Of a stretch of DNA of 24,520 bases, positions 2,239-10,137 are shown one piece after another (position 1 is the first letter of the stretch; every line of letters starts with the position of its first letter). Made by a program: the position numbers and the translations under genes. The DNA lies in the IMG/VR virus record IMGVR_UViG_3300020213_000110, positions 1-24,520 of that record, one strand, 5' to 3'. The notes beneath the pieces are model-generated. The model searched no databases and was not told where the DNA came from. It saw nothing but the letters and a program-made list of their open reading frames with translations. Source of the DNA: a virus (lineage: Duplodnaviria; Caudoviricetes).

Positions 2239-3312
2239 CTATTCCTTCACCGCCGGCGCCCACTTGGCGTCCAGCTTAAGCACCGCGGCCTCCGCCAACT
2301 CAATCCGGCCGCCAAGATAATGCGCGTCAAGAATCGCCTCGACGTCCTTTAGGCTGTGGCCCGTGATGGCCGCGATCTCAGGCACCGTGCAGCCGGCCAG
2401 CGCCAAGCGCGTAACAGCCGTGCCGCGCAGATCGTGGAAGTGTAAATCTTCGTTGATGCGCGACAGCTTAAACGCCTTGCTCCATGACGCGCGGAATCCA
2501 TCTTCGGTCCACGCCTTGCCAAGGCTGTTTAACAGGATCGCGCTTTGCGATTCCTTGCCGGCCTTCGCGTCGTCCAGCGCAGCCTTAAGCGGCCCGCCAA
2601 CCGGGATCGTCACTCGCTTGCCGGTCTTGCCCTGCTTGAGTCGTATCACGCGGCCGTCATACGAGACCCACGTTAACCTAAGCAGGTCGCCCTGCCGCTG
2701 GCCGGTCCACAACGCCAGCACCAGCGCAACCTGCAGCGGCGCGGACGCGGCCGCGCAAAACTGCGCGATGTGATGCGGCTCCCAAATCTTTTCCGCGCGA
2801 TCAGAGCCGTACAGCCGGCCGCCGCGCTCGCATACATTGATGCTGATCTTGCCGCGGTCCTTGGCGACGGACAGCACGCGCGCCAGCACGGTCCACGCGT
2901 AGTCCGCATCGCGCGGATGATCCGCCATCGAATCGCGCCAGGCTTTGAATTTACCGCGCGCGCGCGGGTCCTGCGCCAACGCTAGCGGCATATTCCCAAA
3001 CTCAGACGCGATCTTTTTTAGATAACGGTCATACGACTTGCGAGTCTTCTCCACGATGTTGGTTTTGTATTCGGCGCTGTTGCGAAAGATCGTAATCAGC
3101 GCTTCCATCGTGCCATCGGCATCAGGCTGCCTTTTGCGCCAGGCATCCGCATAAGCAACCGCAAACCGCGGATCGCCAGGCAACAGCGGCACGCCATCCT
3201 TGTCCGCCAGCAACGGCGCCTTCGCGCCACGCCACGCATAGTAATAACTGCGCTTAGTACCGTCAGCCAGGCGTTTTGTGACTTTATTAACGCCCCGCAG
3301 CCTTACGCGCAT
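2239..3312 (-). CDS. int: Tyrosine recombinase / phage integrase
   Basis: Catalytic motifs TGQRQGD (R), HDLR (H-x-x-R), TGHS (H) and HYL (Y); arm-binding-like N-terminus (KRSYYYAWRG). Start moved to ATG 3312 (MRVRLRG), overlapping the xis end. Confidence 0.93.
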   Translation of the reverse strand: MRVRLRGVNKVTKRLADGTKRSYYYAWRGAKAPLLADKDGVPLLPGDPRFAVAYADAWRKRQPDADGTMEALITIFRNSAEYKTNIVEKTRKSYDRYLKKIASEFGNMPLALAQDPRARGKFKAWRDSMADHPRDADYAWTVLARVLSVAKDRGKISINVCERGGRLYGSDRAEKIWEPHHIAQFCAAASAPLQVALVLALWTGQRQGDLLRLTWVSYDGRVIRLKQGKTGKRVTIPVGGPLKAALDDAKAGKESQSAILLNSLGKAWTEDGFRASWSKAFKLSRINEDLHFHDLRGTAVTRLALAGCTVPEIAAITGHSLKDVEAILDAHYLGGRIELAEAAVLKLDAKWAPAVKE

Positions 3313-3550: not shown

Positions 3551-3774
3551 GTGGCGCACTCGTATGCTGCAATAGCCATGTCGGCTTCGTGCGTATGCCG
3601 TTGCCAATCAAAAATCACATACTCGTACGTCTCCGTGATTCGACTATCGTGTCCGGTATCGGACAGCCGGCCCGCGACATAGTTGCGCGCCTTGAACCGA
3701 AGCATAGCGTCTGGAACGCCGCCAGCAGCCCGACAAATGGCGCGCGCAACCGCTTCTCTCTTTTCGTTGGTCAC
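3547..3774 (-). CDS. Phage hypothetical protein (EAVARAIC motif)
   Basis: GTGA overlap with the RNA ligase stop, GGAGGAGG SD. Confidence 0.7.
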   Translation of the reverse strand: MTNEKREAVARAICRAAGGVPDAMLRFKARNYVAGRLSDTGHDSRITETYEYVIFDWQRHTHEADMAIAAYECAT

Positions 3775-4901
3775 GCCGCCTCCTCCATTGCTCGATTGAT
3801 CGTATAGCTGGGCGTATAGCCGGCCAGCCGGTTGCCTGTAGGCCGCACCGCGCGATACAGCGCCGCGCGCGTGCGCGGATGGTGCCGCAGCCCGCCGTGA
3901 TTCCGCATCGGGAAAATAAACGCCCGCACGGCCGGCTCTATGTCTTTCAACGCCAGGCCAACCATCTTGTCGTCATGGCCGGCAAGCGCCCACGCAGTTG
4001 TCGCCGTTGCATCTTCAATCTCCGTTACGCTCGACTCCAGCGCCGCAACAATCGCGTCAAAGTCCACCCAAAACTCCTCCGGCAATTGCCGGCGAATCGC
4101 ATCAAGATCATCGCCCGCGGCCATCGCTTCCCACATCGCCAGCGGCGTAATGCGCGATACCAGCGCGTGGATGCGCTTGTATTCATCGCCCTTCACCTTA
4201 AGCCGCGTGCCGTCGCCAAACCGCAGCACAAAGCCTTCCTGGCTGGCCGGTAGCGTTGGCGCCAGCGCAAGCAATTCGGAGACCGACGTGTAGTATATCT
4301 GCGCGGCGGCGCGCCAGGACATTGATATGGACGCCGCGAAAATTGTGTCTGCGCTCAACTCCTTGCCGTCTTCGGCATAGACGCCAAGCAATACCAACTC
4401 CGGCCGATCATAATGAACCACGATGCGATTGTCCGGCGCAACGTATTCCGCAAGCCACGTTTCGCCCGGCGTAAACCAATAATCCAGCGCGCCGGCGTTC
4501 GCATCCAACAGCGCTTGCGCCGCCTTCGCCTGGTCGCTGCTAAAGCTGCCCTTCGTTGCGCAGCGCCAGCGGCCGCCATGATGGAAGATAATAATCAAGC
4601 TGCCGTCCAGTTTCTCAAACGTCTCAAACGGTAGGTCAGGCCAGCCTTCGCCGCGCTCGCCCACATTGAAAAACTTCGGGAAGGGCGTCGCCACAACGCG
4701 CTCTGCGACAACATCAACAATCAAACCGCGCGCCATCGCCGTAAACGGCGTCCAGGCGCGATCGTAAGCGCAGCTTTTGCTATAGCAAAACAGCCGCAGG
4801 TCGCCGTCCTCCTGCACATTCGCATGACCGGCGTCGACGGCCGCCCACAAGCCGGTCATCAACTCGTCGTAAGGCATCGCGCGGGCGGGATGGATGATCA
4901 T
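3771..4901 (-). CDS. T4 Rnl1-like RNA ligase
   Basis: ARGL and PFPKFFN (Rnl1 signature), motif I EKLDGS, motif IV EGFV, motif V KVKGDEY. Confidence 0.9.
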   Translation of the reverse strand: MIIHPARAMPYDELMTGLWAAVDAGHANVQEDGDLRLFCYSKSCAYDRAWTPFTAMARGLIVDVVAERVVATPFPKFFNVGERGEGWPDLPFETFEKLDGSLIIIFHHGGRWRCATKGSFSSDQAKAAQALLDANAGALDYWFTPGETWLAEYVAPDNRIVVHYDRPELVLLGVYAEDGKELSADTIFAASISMSWRAAAQIYYTSVSELLALAPTLPASQEGFVLRFGDGTRLKVKGDEYKRIHALVSRITPLAMWEAMAAGDDLDAIRRQLPEEFWVDFDAIVAALESSVTEIEDATATTAWALAGHDDKMVGLALKDIEPAVRAFIFPMRNHGGLRHHPRTRAALYRAVRPTGNRLAGYTPSYTINRAMEEAA

Positions 4902-4905
4902 TCGT

Positions 4906-5097
4906 TTAACTCCGGCTCGCCGTGGCGCGCCAATTGAATGTCGCGTCTTGTTCCTCCGTGTCCCACTGGCCGCGCGCTACTTTATCGCGCGCTTCTTCCT
5001 TGCTGGTCGCGCGAAGAAAAACTGTGCCGCGTCCGCTGAAAAGCATCGGCACCATCCAGTCGTGCTCCTCTTCCGGTTCGGCTTTTCTCTTTCCCAT
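4906..5097 (-). CDS. Small hypothetical protein overlapping the 3' end of the kinase/phosphatase ORF
   Basis: ATG 5097 preceded by GGGGAGG; 63 aa including VFLRATSKEEARDKV; stop lies 4 nt before the ligase start. Confidence 0.55.
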   Translation of the reverse strand: MGKRKAEPEEEHDWMVPMLFSGRGTVFLRATSKEEARDKVARGQWDTEEQDATFNWRATASRS

Positions 5098-6049
5098 CGC
5101 GCGGCCTCCCCTTAGCTTGCGTTGTGCGCATGTCAAACACGGTCACATTCTCAAGGCCGTCGCCGCGCAAAATGTCCTTAAGCTGCGACCGGAACGTCTG
5201 CTCGTGCTTGCCAATCAAATCGAATGGCGCGCCATCCGCATCACGCGCATCGTTGCGCCAGCCGCCCTGGGCGCGCTTGATCGCCATCGGCCGATTGACG
5301 ACCATGTAAATCACCGGCCCACCGTTCGCCAAAGCCGCGGCGGCCATACGATCCTTGCGGCGCAAATGCGTTGCGTCGATGATCGTAGGCAGGTTGTGTT
5401 TAAGGCGTGTACGCACCAGCGCATGCACCGCCGCGAACACTTCTACGTTTTTGCTTTGATCGCGAAAATCGCCGCACATATCCGCGCGGACTTCGTCGCT
5501 GCTAATAACACCATGCATTTTCATCTGCGCAACCAGCGCGCTCTTCCCGCCGCCGCTCGGGCCAACCATAATCACAAGCGGCACAGTCGCCGGCAGCGGC
5601 GGATCCGCTGGCGCGGCCTGCAAGCAAACAAGACCAGCCTCGCGCCACATATCTACAACGGATTGGCGGTCGTCTATTACGATGAACGGCTCGTAGCCGT
5701 CCTCGCGCATACCGGCCAGCAGTTGCGCCTTGACGATATGATCCGCCCGCGTGTCGCCCGCAGGGCTCATGTAAAGCGCGTCATACTTGATGTTGTGCTC
5801 ATCTAGCCACGCTTCCGTAGCCGCGCGATAATCTTCCGGCCGGCCGCTGCAAAGCACCACATCGCACTTGTCGTGCGCGTACCAAATCAAATCGGCAACC
5901 GGCTCGATAAGCCCGTCGTCACCCATGCCGGCAAAGAATGAATCCCAATCGCGTTTGCCACCCGGCAGCACATGATAAAGCCTGTGACGGCAGTCGGCCA
6001 GCGTACCGTCAATGTCGCAGATGATCGCTTTCTTCATTGCGGTGCCCAT
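4982..6049 (-). CDS. Polynucleotide 3'-phosphatase/5'-kinase (HAD phosphatase N-terminal, P-loop kinase C-terminal)
   Basis: DIDGT HAD motif I, CSGR, IDDR...VVDMWR as in T4 Pnk-type phosphatases; kinase part has VGPSGGGKS Walker A, ISSDEVR and IIDATHL. Start set at ATG 6049 (TGATG overlap). Confidence 0.88.
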   Translation of the reverse strand: MGTAMKKAIICDIDGTLADCRHRLYHVLPGGKRDWDSFFAGMGDDGLIEPVADLIWYAHDKCDVVLCSGRPEDYRAATEAWLDEHNIKYDALYMSPAGDTRADHIVKAQLLAGMREDGYEPFIVIDDRQSVVDMWREAGLVCLQAAPADPPLPATVPLVIMVGPSGGGKSALVAQMKMHGVISSDEVRADMCGDFRDQSKNVEVFAAVHALVRTRLKHNLPTIIDATHLRRKDRMAAAALANGGPVIYMVVNRPMAIKRAQGGWRNDARDADGAPFDLIGKHEQTFRSQLKDILRGDGLENVTVFDMRTTQAKGRPRDGKEKSRTGRGARLDGADAFQRTRHSFSSRDQQGRSAR

Positions 6050-6183
6050 CAATGCCAGTTGCGAGGATCGTCCAGTGGATCCGGCGAGCGCCGCTTGGCC
6101 AGCCAGCGGCCGGCGCGCTTGGCCACAATGACAGCGGCTCCGCCTAGCCCAAACCAGGCAGCAAAAATCAAAGCGTCAAACAT
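6049..6183 (-). CDS. 44-aa putative membrane peptide
   Basis: ATG 6183 with AGGAG SD; hydrophobic MFDALIFAAWFGLGGAAVIVA followed by a basic tail. Confidence 0.6.
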   Translation of the reverse strand: MFDALIFAAWFGLGGAAVIVAKRAGRWLAKRRSPDPLDDPRNWH

Positions 6184-6885: not shown

Positions 6886-6931
6886 CTAGGAGCCACCATA
6901 CGCGAATCGATAAGAAAAGCAAGGAAAAAAA
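6886..6931 (-). promoter_or_regulatory. Leftward early promoter (PL-like)
   Basis: Minus strand TTTTTTTCC-TTGCTT-16 nt-TATGGT-GGCTCCTAG; flanks near-identical to the rightward promoter at 7774-7819. Confidence 0.7.
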
Positions 6932-6948
6932 TAAATAACTTATCGATT
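6905..6948. promoter_or_regulatory. Candidate repressor operator half-sites (ATCGAT core)
   Basis: Perfect 10-bp inverted repeat AATCGATAAG (6905-6914) / CTTATCGATT (6939-6948); GCGAATCGAT occurs at both 6902-6911 and 7785-7794, inside both promoters. Confidence 0.55.
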
Positions 6949-7735
6949 AGGCCCAAGAAGCGGTCGAAAAGACCACCTTATGAACAGACACCACATGGTC
7001 GCCGTCGAACACAAGTTTTTCCGGCGGATTAAGCTGCTCGACGGTTAGCTTGCCGTCGCTCCGAGACACGAGCCGCTTTACGTAGCCGCTAGGCGGGTCG
7101 CCATCGCGACCGGCTATTTGAATCACCACATAGTCCCCGCGCCGCGCCGGCTTGTTCGGGTGGGCAAACACGTAATTTCCGGGTTCAAAGCGGTCCGTCA
7201 TGGACGTGCCCGCGACCATGGTGGCGTATAGGCCCGCCACGTCCTCAAGGCCGGACGGGCACTGGACGCGCTCTACGATCTCGCCATTGAAAGAAGTATA
7301 GCCGTCGCTCGCTCCGCCAACGACAACTCCATAAACGGGCACGACAGGGTCGGGATAATTGCGGGAAATCGCAATTTGCTGCCCCGCGTTCGCGGGAATG
7401 GACATGCCGGCTACCATTTTAGCGCTGGGTGGGCCGCCGTCGTAGTATTTGGCAGTGGGCGGCAATTCTACTTCCGGGTGCTCGGTCGACCAGATCTTAG
7501 ACGTCTTGCCTTCAGCCTCGGCATACTCGTTGATCCAGTCGTTGGCCGTTTTCAAGTCCAAGCCAATCTGCGTGGCCACCTCTTTCCAATAGCCGGGCCG
7601 CGCGGTTTTTCCTTTAATTACCTAATTTAACCCGGCCTGGTCGGTTTTGCTTAGGCCAAAGTGTATCGCGCCCTTCTTTTGCGAGAGCTTGTGAGTGTTC
7701 AGATAGCGTTGAATTGCCTGCCCAAATTTGTTCAT
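6947..7735 (-). pseudogene. cI: CI/LexA-like repressor (HTH + S24 peptidase) interrupted by in-frame TAG at 7622-7624
   Basis: ATG 7735 MNKFGQAIQRYLNTHKLSQKKGAIHFGLSKTDQAGLN*VIKGKTARPGYWKEVATQIG continues in frame into the S24 domain (GTSMTDRFEPG catalytic Ser, YVKRL catalytic Lys). Confidence 0.8.
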
Positions 7736-7773
7736 GGACCCTACGTAACACAAAAATTTATCAATGCAAGTCG

Positions 7774-7819
7774 TTTTTTTCCTTGCGAATCGATCAAAGT
7801 CTTGTATGGTGGCTCTTAG
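7774..7819 (+). promoter_or_regulatory. Rightward early promoter (PR-like)
   Basis: TTTTTTTCC-TTGCGA(7783)-16 nt-TATGGT(7805)-GGCTCTTAG; mirrors the leftward promoter. Confidence 0.7.
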
Positions 7820-7858
7820 AGAAGGCGCCGCGATGTGCGGACTCGGGGGAGCGCCACA

Positions 7859-8191
7859 ATGCATGCTGAGATTAGACGCGCCATTGCGCGCGAACGGATA
7901 ACTGCTGGTGCTGGCTACGGCTTTATGGCGCTCATTCGGCCGGAGTCCTTGCCGCGCACCTGCAGCGATACCTACCGCGGGGCCCTTCCCGATCTGACGC
8001 CGACCGAGGCGGCCCTTGAGCACCGCAAAGACACCATTCGCCGCATGACCGCCGTCGAACAAGACACCGCCGCGCTGGCCGCCCTACGCCGGGGGCATCC
8101 GCACCGGGACTATAGCGGCCGGCCCCGGAGCCACCACCAGCAACGCGCGTCGCAAATGCCAAGTGCGACGCGAATAGGCGGGACGCGTTAA
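7859..8191 (+). CDS. Hypothetical protein, first gene of the rightward operon (no recognisable Cro HTH)
   Basis: ATG 7859 with GGGGGAG SD just downstream of the promoter. Confidence 0.55.
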   Translation: MHAEIRRAIARERITAGAGYGFMALIRPESLPRTCSDTYRGALPDLTPTEAALEHRKDTIRRMTAVEQDTAALAALRRGHPHRDYSGRPRSHHQQRASQMPSATRIGGTR

Positions 8192-8220
8192 ATCCACGGG
8201 CGCGTCCCGCCGACCCTTTT
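8146..8220 (+). other. Two adjacent perfect hairpins, the second followed by a short T tract (possible terminator/attenuator)
   Basis: CGCGTCGCA/TGCGACGCG (8146-8172) and GGCGGGACGCG/CGCGTCCCGCC (8177-8211), then GACCCTTTT. Confidence 0.45.
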
Positions 8221-8234
8221 GCCCGCGCAGGAGC

Positions 8235-8741
8235 ATGCCGATGAATTTTGAATCGACCGTTGCCGAAGATGTTGCGCAAGCGCTGCATCAGGGCAAAACA
8301 GAAGCGCAAACGCATGCGATGCTGCGCGCCAAGTGCGACCGCAACGGCGGGTTTCGGGATTGGCTGCTGGACCGCGCCATCCGTGCGCTGGTTGGCGAGC
8401 ACCGGCGCACGTTGCGCGCGCTGATCGTGCATCAGGAATCCGTTGCAAGGCCATTCACGGGAACGCGCCGTCAAGCGGCGGTAACAGGAACGGCGCGCCT
8501 GGTTCGCGAAACGCTGATGGACTTCCCGCTTTATGGCGGCGGCCGGCTGGGCAACGCGACGCGCGACGCGATCATGGATTCTGGCGCTGCGTTTTTGGCG
8601 CAGGGCAAAACGCAGGTCACCAATGGCAAGTGGCTACTTGCTGTTGGCGCAACGATGCCCAAGGGCGTGCGGTGCGAAGACTTTTATGCGGTGAGCAAGC
8701 TGCAGGAACTGAGAAAGGCGGCCGAACGTGCAAGCCATTGA
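8235..8741 (+). CDS. Hypothetical protein directly upstream of the guide-RNA array (candidate Tas partner)
   Basis: 168 aa, CAGGAG SD, helical and globular-looking (LMDFPLYGGGRLGNATRDAI...KWLLAVG); ends 30 nt before the array. Confidence 0.75.
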   Translation: MPMNFESTVAEDVAQALHQGKTEAQTHAMLRAKCDRNGGFRDWLLDRAIRALVGEHRRTLRALIVHQESVARPFTGTRRQAAVTGTARLVRETLMDFPLYGGGRLGNATRDAIMDSGAAFLAQGKTQVTNGKWLLAVGATMPKGVRCEDFYAVSKLQELRKAAERASH

Positions 8742-8770
8742 ATCAGCGGTGCTTGGCGCCGAAACAGAAT

Positions 8771-9414
8771 CCACGCGCAAGCGTGGTGCGCGGGTCATTA
8801 GCGTTGTGAGGCCCAAAAGTGGATTGCCCGCGCAATCTATCGCCAGCAACGGCGAGGAGTCGGCCGAGCGAATGATGCTGCCCACTGGTTGTCTGCCGAC
8901 TCCATCAATTCCAGTTGCGCGCAAGCGCAAGGCGCGGGCCGCTAGGCCGTTGGCAACCGAACCCGTCATGCCCGCGCCAACCAATACCGCCAGCGATGGC
9001 GGTGCAGCGGCCAATGGTAAGTTGGAATCCGTGCCTCCTATGCCGCTGCAGCAATCCCGTCGCAAGGCGGGCGGAGTCGGCCGCGTCCGCTTTGGTACCC
9101 TGCTGCTGGATGCCGACTCCAACCTTTCGCCGCGCAAGCGGCGTGTGCGGGCCGAAAGTAAACTGGCGCCCACGGTCGGGTTGCCCGCACAACCTATCGC
9201 CGGCCACATAAGGTTTGACGCCCAAACGTCGCCTGCCGGCGCGCCGACTCCTTCACCGGAGTCGGCAACCAATAGCGATGGCCTCCACGGAAATGCCCCC
9301 CGCACTGGTTTTGCCATCGCGCCGGCCGAAATGCCGGCAACCAATATCGGCGCCACAAGCGTCGATGGAGAGCGCCTGATTGCTGTTGACACCCACGTTT
9401 GCAATGCGCTCTCC
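8771..9414 (+). ncRNA. TIGR-like stem-loop guide-RNA array, 9 dual-spacer units
   Basis: Units at 8787-8834, 8856-8903, 8931-8978, 9003-9050, 9073-9120, 9144-9191, 9198-9241, 9275-9320 and 9367-9414. Each is a 7-9 bp stem enclosing CC-N-9nt-TG-4nt-CC-N-9nt-TG (unit 1 has TC for the first CC); stems covary and all 18 spacers differ. Confidence 0.88.
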
Positions 9415-10137
9415 GCCCATCCCGCAGTCGCTCCGCTCATCGCCGCCGGCCGCTACCGCCGCAAGTTGGCAAAAGGCCAGCAGCGAATCTTCAACGCCGT
9501 GTTCGGAATGTGTATGGAGATGACACTCGACACCAACGGCGACGTTGATAAAGCCGCCGCAGCCAAACTCAGCGCCAAGGTGATGACCGCATATCAAAGC
9601 GGCGATGACAAAGGCGACGCGGCTGTTATGGACGTGCTGATTGTCGCGGCTCCGTTTTGGGTCGGCCGGGCGCCGCTGGTTGAGGCCCAGGCGCGCATCG
9701 AAAAGCGAATGCGCGAAGACGCCCGCCTGTTGCCGGTCTGGCCGTGGGTTGAATCGGTGCGCGGCTTTGGCCCGCTGTCCTTTGCGAAGATTATTGCCGA
9801 AACCGGCGATTTGAATAATTACGCAACCGTTTCCAAAGTCTGGAAACGACTGGGCCAGGCCGTGACGGACGGCAAAACAGACCGCCGCGGAGCGCGAGGC
9901 GCCACAGCGTTCAACATCCGCGATCCGCTTATCAAGGCCCAGGGAAAATCAGAAAACGGAAACGCCGGTCCATACCGCCTTGTTTACGAATCAGCCAAGG
10001 CAAAAAAGCTGGCGGCCTTGGCGGCAGGTGAATGCACCTGGTCTCTCAAGCACATCGACGTGCACGCGCAGCGTGTCATGGTCAAGGAATTGCTGAAAAA
10101 CCTTTGGATTGAATGGCGCCGAGCGACGCGCGCCTAA
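9331..10137 (+). CDS. TasA-like Nop/IS110-Tnp-domain RNA-binding protein without nuclease domain (start uncertain; frame is open back to GTG 8728)
   Basis: Coiled-coil helices, then WVESVRGFGPLSFAKIIAETGDLNNYATVSKVWKRLG (IS110/Transposase_20-like helix-hairpin-helix) and C-terminal HAQRVMVKELLKNLWIEWRR. No DEDD RuvC, no HNH and no catalytic-Ser SG loop seen; adjacent to the array. Confidence 0.8.
   Translation: MPATNIGATSVDGERLIAVDTHVCNALSAHPAVAPLIAAGRYRRKLAKGQQRIFNAVFGMCMEMTLDTNGDVDKAAAAKLSAKVMTAYQSGDDKGDAAVMDVLIVAAPFWVGRAPLVEAQARIEKRMREDARLLPVWPWVESVRGFGPLSFAKIIAETGDLNNYATVSKVWKRLGQAVTDGKTDRRGARGATAFNIRDPLIKAQGKSENGNAGPYRLVYESAKAKKLAALAAGECTWSLKHIDVHAQRVMVKELLKNLWIEWRRATRA

Follow-up and report, generated by a model that had tools for sequence, protein, structure and literature searches.

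A stem-loop TIGR array in a temperate phage that probably guides a nuclease-free TasA protein to matching DNA

What purpose is served by nine hairpins that share a shape but not a sequence, placed directly before a phage gene for a Nop-like protein? They lie on the plus strand at 8787-9414 of the window, by which is meant the whole 24,520-nt stretch analysed here (IMG/VR IMGVR_UViG_3300020213_000110, Caudoviricetes), a virus record that is 40% complete. The initial annotation saw in them an array conserved by structure. This holds, but the boxes and spacers within the hairpins were overlooked. The units are probably DNA-targeting guides and not merely structured RNAs. Their layout is that of dual-spacer guide RNAs of a TIGR-TasA system of the stem-loop type. 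We put the probability at about 0.82 that the array yields guides steering a nuclease-free TasA protein of a temperate phage to bind and silence matching DNA. The system itself is known, since TIGR-Tas has been published and thousands of stem-loop arrays catalogued, with 2,559 in TIGRFinder; the spacer-less hairpins described below are a modest architectural variant. The locus bears on two open questions of the published papers, the maturation of stem-loop guides and the gain and loss of guides in arrays.

All nine units read stem-CCN-9 nt-TG-4 nt-CCN-9 nt-TG-stem:

8787..8834, plus strand: guide unit 1, spacers 8798-8806 and 8816-8824; first box C is TC
8856..8903, plus strand: guide unit 2, spacers 8867-8875 and 8885-8893
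8931..8978, plus strand: guide unit 3, spacers 8942-8950 and 8960-8968
9003..9050, plus strand: guide unit 4, spacers 9014-9022 and 9032-9040
9073..9120, plus strand: guide unit 5, spacers 9084-9092 and 9102-9110; stem identical to that of unit 2
9144..9191, plus strand: guide unit 6, spacers 9155-9163 and 9173-9181
9198..9241, plus strand: guide unit 7, spacers 9207-9215 and 9225-9233; hairpin on the 3' side, none on the 5' side
9275..9320, plus strand: guide unit 8, spacers 9285-9293 and 9303-9311; hairpin on the 3' side
9367..9414, plus strand: guide unit 9, spacers 9378-9386 and 9396-9404; its end is the start of the TasA core

TIGR arrays are described as carrying two spacers of 8-12 nt between box C (CCA) and box D (UG), and in stem-loop arrays variable palindromes replace the edge repeats (Faure et al. 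2025, PMC12045711); according to the same text the motifs can diverge. In the window, box C is CC in 17 of 18 cases, the exception being the TC of unit 1, and box D is TG in all 18. These invariant inner boxes occur twice per unit, 10 nt apart, and the 18 spacers are unrelated in sequence. The closing stems comprise 6-8 Watson-Crick bp in all nine units and their arms match those listed in the initial annotation, whose statement that each stem pairs with its own 3' arm proved perfectly true in nine units of nine; the unit positions and the core-to-core spacings of 69, 75, 72, 70, 71, 52, 78 and 93 nt were likewise reproduced. Dinucleotide shuffles of the region contained no unit in 1995 of 2000 cases and a single one in the other five, and 99 of 100 shuffles of the whole window contained none. 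No further stem-bearing unit is present elsewhere in the window, where the box pattern occurs once more, at 5266, without a stem. Searches of the window with Rfam gave one weak match, outside the array, a tRNA scan gave nothing, and a promoter and terminator scan gave nothing above shuffles.

The third base of box C is relaxed, being A in 8 of 18 boxes of the window as against 443 of 536 in relatives. The last spacer base before TG is A or T in 14 of 18 cases, compared with about half in relatives. Because of this bias and the relaxed third base, the guide register in the window's lineage may be shifted by one base.

The nine units align without gaps, with 96.7% of 90 cells paired and six pairs changed on both sides. 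The covariation score of 0.594 was reached by none of 500 shuffles, slid controls gave 0.03-0.11, and the array region folds with z = -6.0. These six covarying stem pairs agree with the conservation of structure over sequence that had been proposed. The further suggestion that divergence of the stems prevents misfolding between units is weakened by units 2 and 5, which have an identical stem and are both predicted to fold locally (the stem having a probability of 0.92 and 0.91, respectively). That stems diverge within stem-loop arrays has already been described in the text of Xu et al. 2026 (10.64898/2026.09.09.750476).

The units are spaced by eight A/C-rich linkers:

8835..8839, plus strand: linker
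8904..8914, plus strand: linker
8979..8985, plus strand: linker
9051..9055, plus strand: linker
9121..9127, plus strand: linker
9192..9197, plus strand: linker
9267..9274, plus strand: linker
9339..9345, plus strand: linker

The linkers carry A, C or T at 54 of their 56 bases. Their mean unpaired probability is 0.90-1.0 in seven and 0.65 in one, in keeping with the single-strandedness first supposed, and their supposed role as cleavage sites is made likely by stem arrays that are reported to be processed at linker regions (PMC12045711, legend to Fig. 7C). The linker words that had been reported, AACCAATA at 8979, 9267 and 9339 and AACCT at 9121 and 9191, are all present; their placing after closing stems is wrong for the copies of AACCAATA at 9267 and 9339, which follow the extra hairpins 9243-9266 and 9321-9338. 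CTT, corresponding to the CUU processing-boundary motif, is found in one of the eight linkers, and is not taken as defining because the motif is mapped as clade-variable in Xu et al. (10.64898/2026.09.09.750476, legend to Extended Data Fig. 6f). By analogy with published Tas systems, the transcript would be cut within these single-stranded linkers, and a host RNase may do the cutting; RNase E, named in the initial annotation, is a candidate.

The effector gene begins within or before the array, depending on which start is used:

8728..10137, plus strand: tasA reading frame, open from 8713; GTG 8728 overlaps the stop of the companion gene
9415..10137, plus strand: TasA core, a coiled coil and Nop domain without nuclease domain

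A search with the single core sequence (phmmer) matched TaTasR (9MTY) at E 6e-7, and a family profile built from 41 of 52 family sequences matched 9MTY residues 137-295 at E 4e-21 and SpTasH at E 4e-9. The profile match is confined to these residues of TaTasR, and the N-terminal extension of the window's TasA is the array itself. The predicted structure (pLDDT 91.9) is all helical, and in a fold search all nine matches at E<=0.001 were TasR or TasH, with IS110 recombinases (E 0.03) and Nop5/Prp31 ranking next. As Pfam gave no match to DEDD, RuvC or HNH in the 469-aa frame and no nuclease domain is present, the protein is classed as TasA (Nop only). The Nop-like gene does then belong to the array, as the initial annotation had supposed, being a Nop-only Tas by both profile and fold matches. 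The guide-binding residues of PlTasA (W295, H299, R306, K310, K314, R321) have their spacing kept when aligned by eye. The tail after the last conserved Trp is of 9 aa, as against the 27-aa extension described for SpTasH, and so leaves no room for a Y/H processing loop, as in stem-loop clades.

The closest known systems are the stem-loop TIGR-TasA systems PlTasA (PMC12045711; structure in 10.64898/2026.08.11.744272) and BlTasA/MbTasA (10.64898/2026.09.09.750476), as there described. They share with the window stem-closed two-spacer units, a 9-nt loop repeat (TG + 4 + CCN), variable stems, linkers, a Nop-only effector, a phage setting and units within the tas frame. In the window, unlike these, a spacer-less hairpin stands directly beside each unit, the open frame takes in all nine units, the third base of box C is mostly not A, and CUU is confined to the one linker. 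The best solved relatives are the dual-repeat TIGR-TasR and TasH systems (TaTasR 9MTY, SpTasH 9W04), which have in common with it the Nop fold, C/D boxes and tandem spacers, whereas the window system has no edge repeats, no nuclease and no C-terminal Y/H processing loop.

A related Nop-like RNA-binding domain is also found in the IS110 bridge RNA recombinases (IS621, ISCro4), and the locus could be taken for the remnant of an IS110/IS1111 transposon with bridge-RNA-like repeats, given a weak Transposase_20 match (E 0.067), the transposase label of PHROG 4285 and IS110 folds at ranks 10-17. Tas structures stand above IS110 by 2-3 orders of E, however, and the locus has nine different units instead of one two-loop RNA and a fixed place in an operon with a companion gene. 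There are no element ends as in IS621 or ISCro4, and since the catalytic DEDD domain is missing we consider this explanation refuted, with hardly any probability left to it.

In a quick tree the window Tas forms a long branch of unsure position. Given this and the relaxed box C, some decay of the array and TasA is conceivable. A missing His, the residue stacking on the adenine of box C, was considered as the cause of the relaxed box C, with the motif read in 13 of 24 loci, and was rejected, as L050 has Glu at this position and yet has A in 20 of 22 boxes. The window TasA peptide does not occur in four supplementary files of PMC12045711, a set in which Table S1 is partial, and the locus may still be catalogued there.

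The tas frame runs through the array with no stop codon, as against 4.5 expected, a result matched by 0.8% of 3000 shuffles. On the plus strand the two remaining frames contain 4 and 8 stops, and one minus frame also has none. The Tas core begins at about 9393-9415; the nearest upstream ATG, at 9331, has no Shine-Dalgarno word, whereas the GTG at 8728 has one. From the placing of these starts relative to the core, unit 9 is probably translated and the whole array possibly so; if it were, unit 9 and perhaps the entire array might also form a floppy N-terminal tail on TasA. Arrays within tas coding sequence have already been described in the text of Xu et al. (10.64898/2026.09.09.750476). Among relatives, 7 of 17 loci keep the tas frame open over the gap, compared with 6 of 34 other frames, a mild excess. 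The stop-free minus frame, the mildness of this excess and the flat codon-position GC given below weaken the case for translation of the array.

An open frame through the array, together with the lack of targets, might suggest a generic array of structured small RNAs, or the by-product of a low-complexity protein tail, with no guide function. The GC content by codon position is flat across the array, second-position GC being 0.60 compared with 0.46-0.51 in five genes, and this, the adjoining Tas gene, the invariant boxes at a fixed 10-nt distance twice per unit and the 18 unrelated spacers make such an origin extremely improbable.

A second element of the array is a series of small hairpins without spacers:

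8771..8786, plus strand: blank hairpin 1, GCAA loop; abuts unit 1
8840..8855, plus strand: blank hairpin 2, 6-nt loop; abuts unit 2
8915..8930, plus strand: blank hairpin 3, GCAA loop; before unit 3
8986..9002, plus strand: blank hairpin 4, with a GCGA loop; also present before a unit in L019/L045
9056..9071, plus strand: blank hairpin 5, GCAA loop; before unit 5
9128..9143, plus strand: blank hairpin 6, GCAA loop; before unit 6
9243..9266, plus strand: blank hairpin 3' of unit 7, assembled from the arms of the stem shared by units 2 and 5, their order reversed
9321..9338, plus strand: collapsed unit 3' of unit 8, reading stem, CC, 4 nt, TG, stem, without spacers
9346..9366, plus strand: blank hairpin 5' of unit 9, 5-nt loop; abuts unit 9

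Those before units 1-6 had been noticed and were found again in place, five with GCAA or GCGA loops and that at 8840-8855 with its 6-nt loop. To these are added hairpins on the 3' side of units 7 and 8 and on the 5' side of unit 9, so that all nine units abut a small hairpin; with either side allowed, the background rate is 0.17; a 5' hairpin called for unit 7 was discarded as it overlaps the stem of unit 6. The five GNRA hairpins have differing, fully paired stems of 6-7 bp and stand 0-1 nt from the guide stem. With the native hairpins, the mean closing-stem probability is 0.85, compared with 0.58 when the hairpins are shuffled, and none of 25 shuffles reaches the native value, a test that is partly trivial because any loose GC-rich flank competes. 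The hairpin at 9243-9266 looks as if two neighbouring units had been fused, 3' arm to 5' arm. The collapsed unit is the sole such case found near the arrays examined.

Relatives suggest what these hairpins may be. Of the 53 loci that encode this protein or a relative, the window being one of them, a strict unit finder detected the window's unit grammar in 36; its misses include a clade without detected units. A census, leaving out L053 and duplicate units, gave 277 distinct units, of which 174 lie in abutting runs, with 84 in first, 84 in second and 6 in middle position, and 103 are solo. The abutting pairs of relatives are separated by A/C/U-rich linkers resembling those of the window, which itself lacks pairs. 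Of the 103 solo units, 11 (five in the window, four in L019, one each in L005 and L044) have a GNRA hairpin directly on their 5' side. The same holds for none of the 84 first members, and for 10 of 12,150 places chosen at random. L019 has two types of stem, one for each slot of a pair. By eye, its ten second-type stems follow a guide in four cases and a small hairpin in six, four of these hairpins being GNRA-capped; one is identical in sequence to the window hairpin 8986-9002, and that at L019:10360 retains first-type stem arms, a visible remnant of a guide stem. The blank hairpins of L019 occur both outside and inside genes. Units at L019:8777 and L019:10205-10410, 5-7 kb downstream of tas and off the main array, have the same blank-hairpin layout. 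Two DNA-motif scans for more blank-hairpin arrays returned 11 and 6 stretches, recovering only L019/L045 and no new array.

On the basis of the L019 slots, the remnant at L019:10360 and the collapsed unit at 9321-9338, each small hairpin most likely stands in for a guide that was lost or never present, so that a module of two helices is kept. The RNA made would be a linker followed by two helices, about 65-75 nt in all. In many relatives both helices are guides, and in the window one would be a blank hairpin preserving the shape of the module. The blank might also keep neighbouring GC-rich arms from mispairing, and it may shield an end, as the initial annotation proposed for 5' ends. Such a module is not universal, since 92 of the 103 solo units have no GNRA hairpin. 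A blank hairpin in a guide slot points to a two-helix processing unit, and the pair, the blank plus guide and the collapsed unit form a natural mutant series. No mention of blank-slot hairpins was found in the text of PMC12045711, 10.64898/2026.09.09.750476 and 10.64898/2026.08.11.744272 as available, and the main text of 10.64898/2026.09.09.750476 has no mention of GNRA, tetraloop or doublet; supplementary fig. S13 of PMC12045711, on stem-loop arrays, may show linker hairpins.

A plainer account is that the guides are real and the small hairpins neutral leftovers of deleted guides, kept only by the constraint of the reading frame, in an array that may be decaying. The collapsed unit, the hairpin that reuses the arms of units 2 and 5, the first-type stem remnant of L019 and the relaxed box C all fit this. 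Leftovers would scarcely be expected to have stable GNRA loops on five differing, fully paired stems set so close to the guide, nor to show the GNRA-hairpin layout four times in L019 both outside and inside genes, and the perfect stems and box D of all nine units are at odds with decay; we therefore think this account unlikely. A bolder one, which we hold to be somewhat less probable still, is a two-slot guide RNA carrying two TasA dimers, which could join two DNA sites, with the companion gene as the missing effector and the blanks and collapsed unit as intermediates in a gain and loss of guides that needs no adaptation enzyme. If this were true, the window phage would be in a one-guide state, with the GNRA hairpin as the blank in the other slot. 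An abutting guide pair resembles the two-loop bridge RNA of IS110, one loop of which would be blank in the window; Faure et al. (PMC12045711) describe the bridge RNA as a fusion of two tigRNAs.

Two further genes flank the array on its left:

8235..8741, plus strand: companion gene, 168 aa, directly before the array and tas; no known family
6947..7735, minus strand: repressor gene of the S24/CI type, reading away from the TIGR operon; the assembly has one in-frame TAG in it, at 7624-7622

The companion has 113 relatives at E<=0.001, and with their profile 44 of 53 loci, duplicates included, show a homologue immediately before tas (E<=0.01); in 2 of the 9 loci without one, the contig ends close upstream. 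It has no match in Pfam, PHROG or PDB sequences and no usable Atlas match, and a word-index search found only itself. No Pfam match to ParB was obtained for the companion or 10 relatives, nor any ParB match in PHROGs or PDB sequences, and in this the locus is unlike the tasParB-tasA operon. A conserved stretch of the companion resembles DFPLxGGKRLGDAT...KGRWL. Loci L002-L004, L006-L011, L038, L039, L047 and L048 form a well-supported Tas clade with the companion and almost no units, a single far unit being found in L009; this clade has either another box grammar or no array.

The minus strand of the window encodes an integrase and the repressor, and the plus-strand early operon a Sak4-like ATPase, DUF669, a sliding clamp, an exonuclease, a helicase, methylases and a primase. 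The order of this operon is that of Rhizobium phage 16-3 and its kin, with the TIGR module near the head. The TAG of the repressor, at codon 38, separates the N-terminal DNA-binding part from the rest. As runs X2 and X3 have a sense codon there, the stop may reflect a repressor-null (lytic) variant in the source population, or an assembly error. The leftward operon, at 3771-6052 on the minus strand, also encodes an RNA ligase (T4 Rnl1-like) and a polynucleotide kinase/phosphatase, which make up a pair for RNA repair and lie 3-5 kb away from the array.

In the mechanism suggested by published Tas systems, a TasA dimer would bind the two C/D boxes of a guide, spacers A and B would pair with opposite strands of one 18-bp site, and the bound protein would block transcription without cutting. 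Repression by TasA has been shown for other loci in the text of Xu et al. 2026 (10.64898/2026.09.09.750476). Targets were sought in both geometries, spacer A with the reverse complement of spacer B and the opposite. With 220 distinct units against 1.7 Mb of related loci, target counts equalled those of re-paired controls. With 277 units against 2.1 Mb there were no exact matches, and six with one mismatch compared with about 3.7 in controls, three of the six being one site class at gap -1. Sixteen guides against 0.49 Mb (four cultured rhizobial phages plus the window) gave four 2-mismatch matches as against 2.7. A match of unit 5 in L014, with one mismatch and a 1-nt gap, was treated as chance. 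Since no target rose above chance in the window, the 52-93 related loci or the four cultured rhizobial phages, the class of targets can only be guessed at; the guides might conceivably be aimed at competing phages or other mobile elements, at genes of theirs met during early lytic growth.

The guides might instead be aimed at the missing part of the phage's own genome or at host genes, in control of lysis and lysogeny or in silencing of the host. The module, to the right of the repressor, takes the place expected of a cro-like switch gene, about 60% of the phage genome is missing, the host is not known, and such roles are listed as open in the text of Xu et al. (10.64898/2026.09.09.750476). 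Against own targets, none with up to 3 mismatches occurs in the 24.5-kb window outside the array (9+9 reading), the repressor, integrase and promoter region included, and seven units of the related phage RHph_X2_25, searched with up to 2 mismatches, match nowhere in the complete genome of that phage. The spacers, moreover, all differ between related phages. We regard own or host targets as possible though doubtful.

The whole stretch is present unchanged in run X1, which may be its source. In run X2 there are five differences in 6900-9243, two of them in the array at 9086 and 9105, in spacers A and B of unit 5, and neither makes a stop. Changes in both spacers of one unit, seen in one contig only, hint at spacer change in place.

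A search of 50,697 phage records found two that hold a Tas relative, Mycobacterium phage Rich (KY224000) and the cultured Rhizobium phage RHph_X2_25. In the latter (MW960032, 23652-25718), the TIGR locus is annotated as hypothetical proteins. The order of repressor, companion, stem-loop units and tasA is shared with the window, and three units lie in the 5' coding part of tasA; it differs in that box D is mostly CG, and most units are single. The stem-loop TIGR-TasA locus was placed at L113:3161-4700 (about 24258-25800 of MW960032.1). Seven units were detected in this phage, and the one at locus position 3161 has a small hairpin, its loop of 5 nt, directly before it. The phage has a known host, Sinorhizobium americanum, and the same operon, and so opens a native test of TasA and companion.
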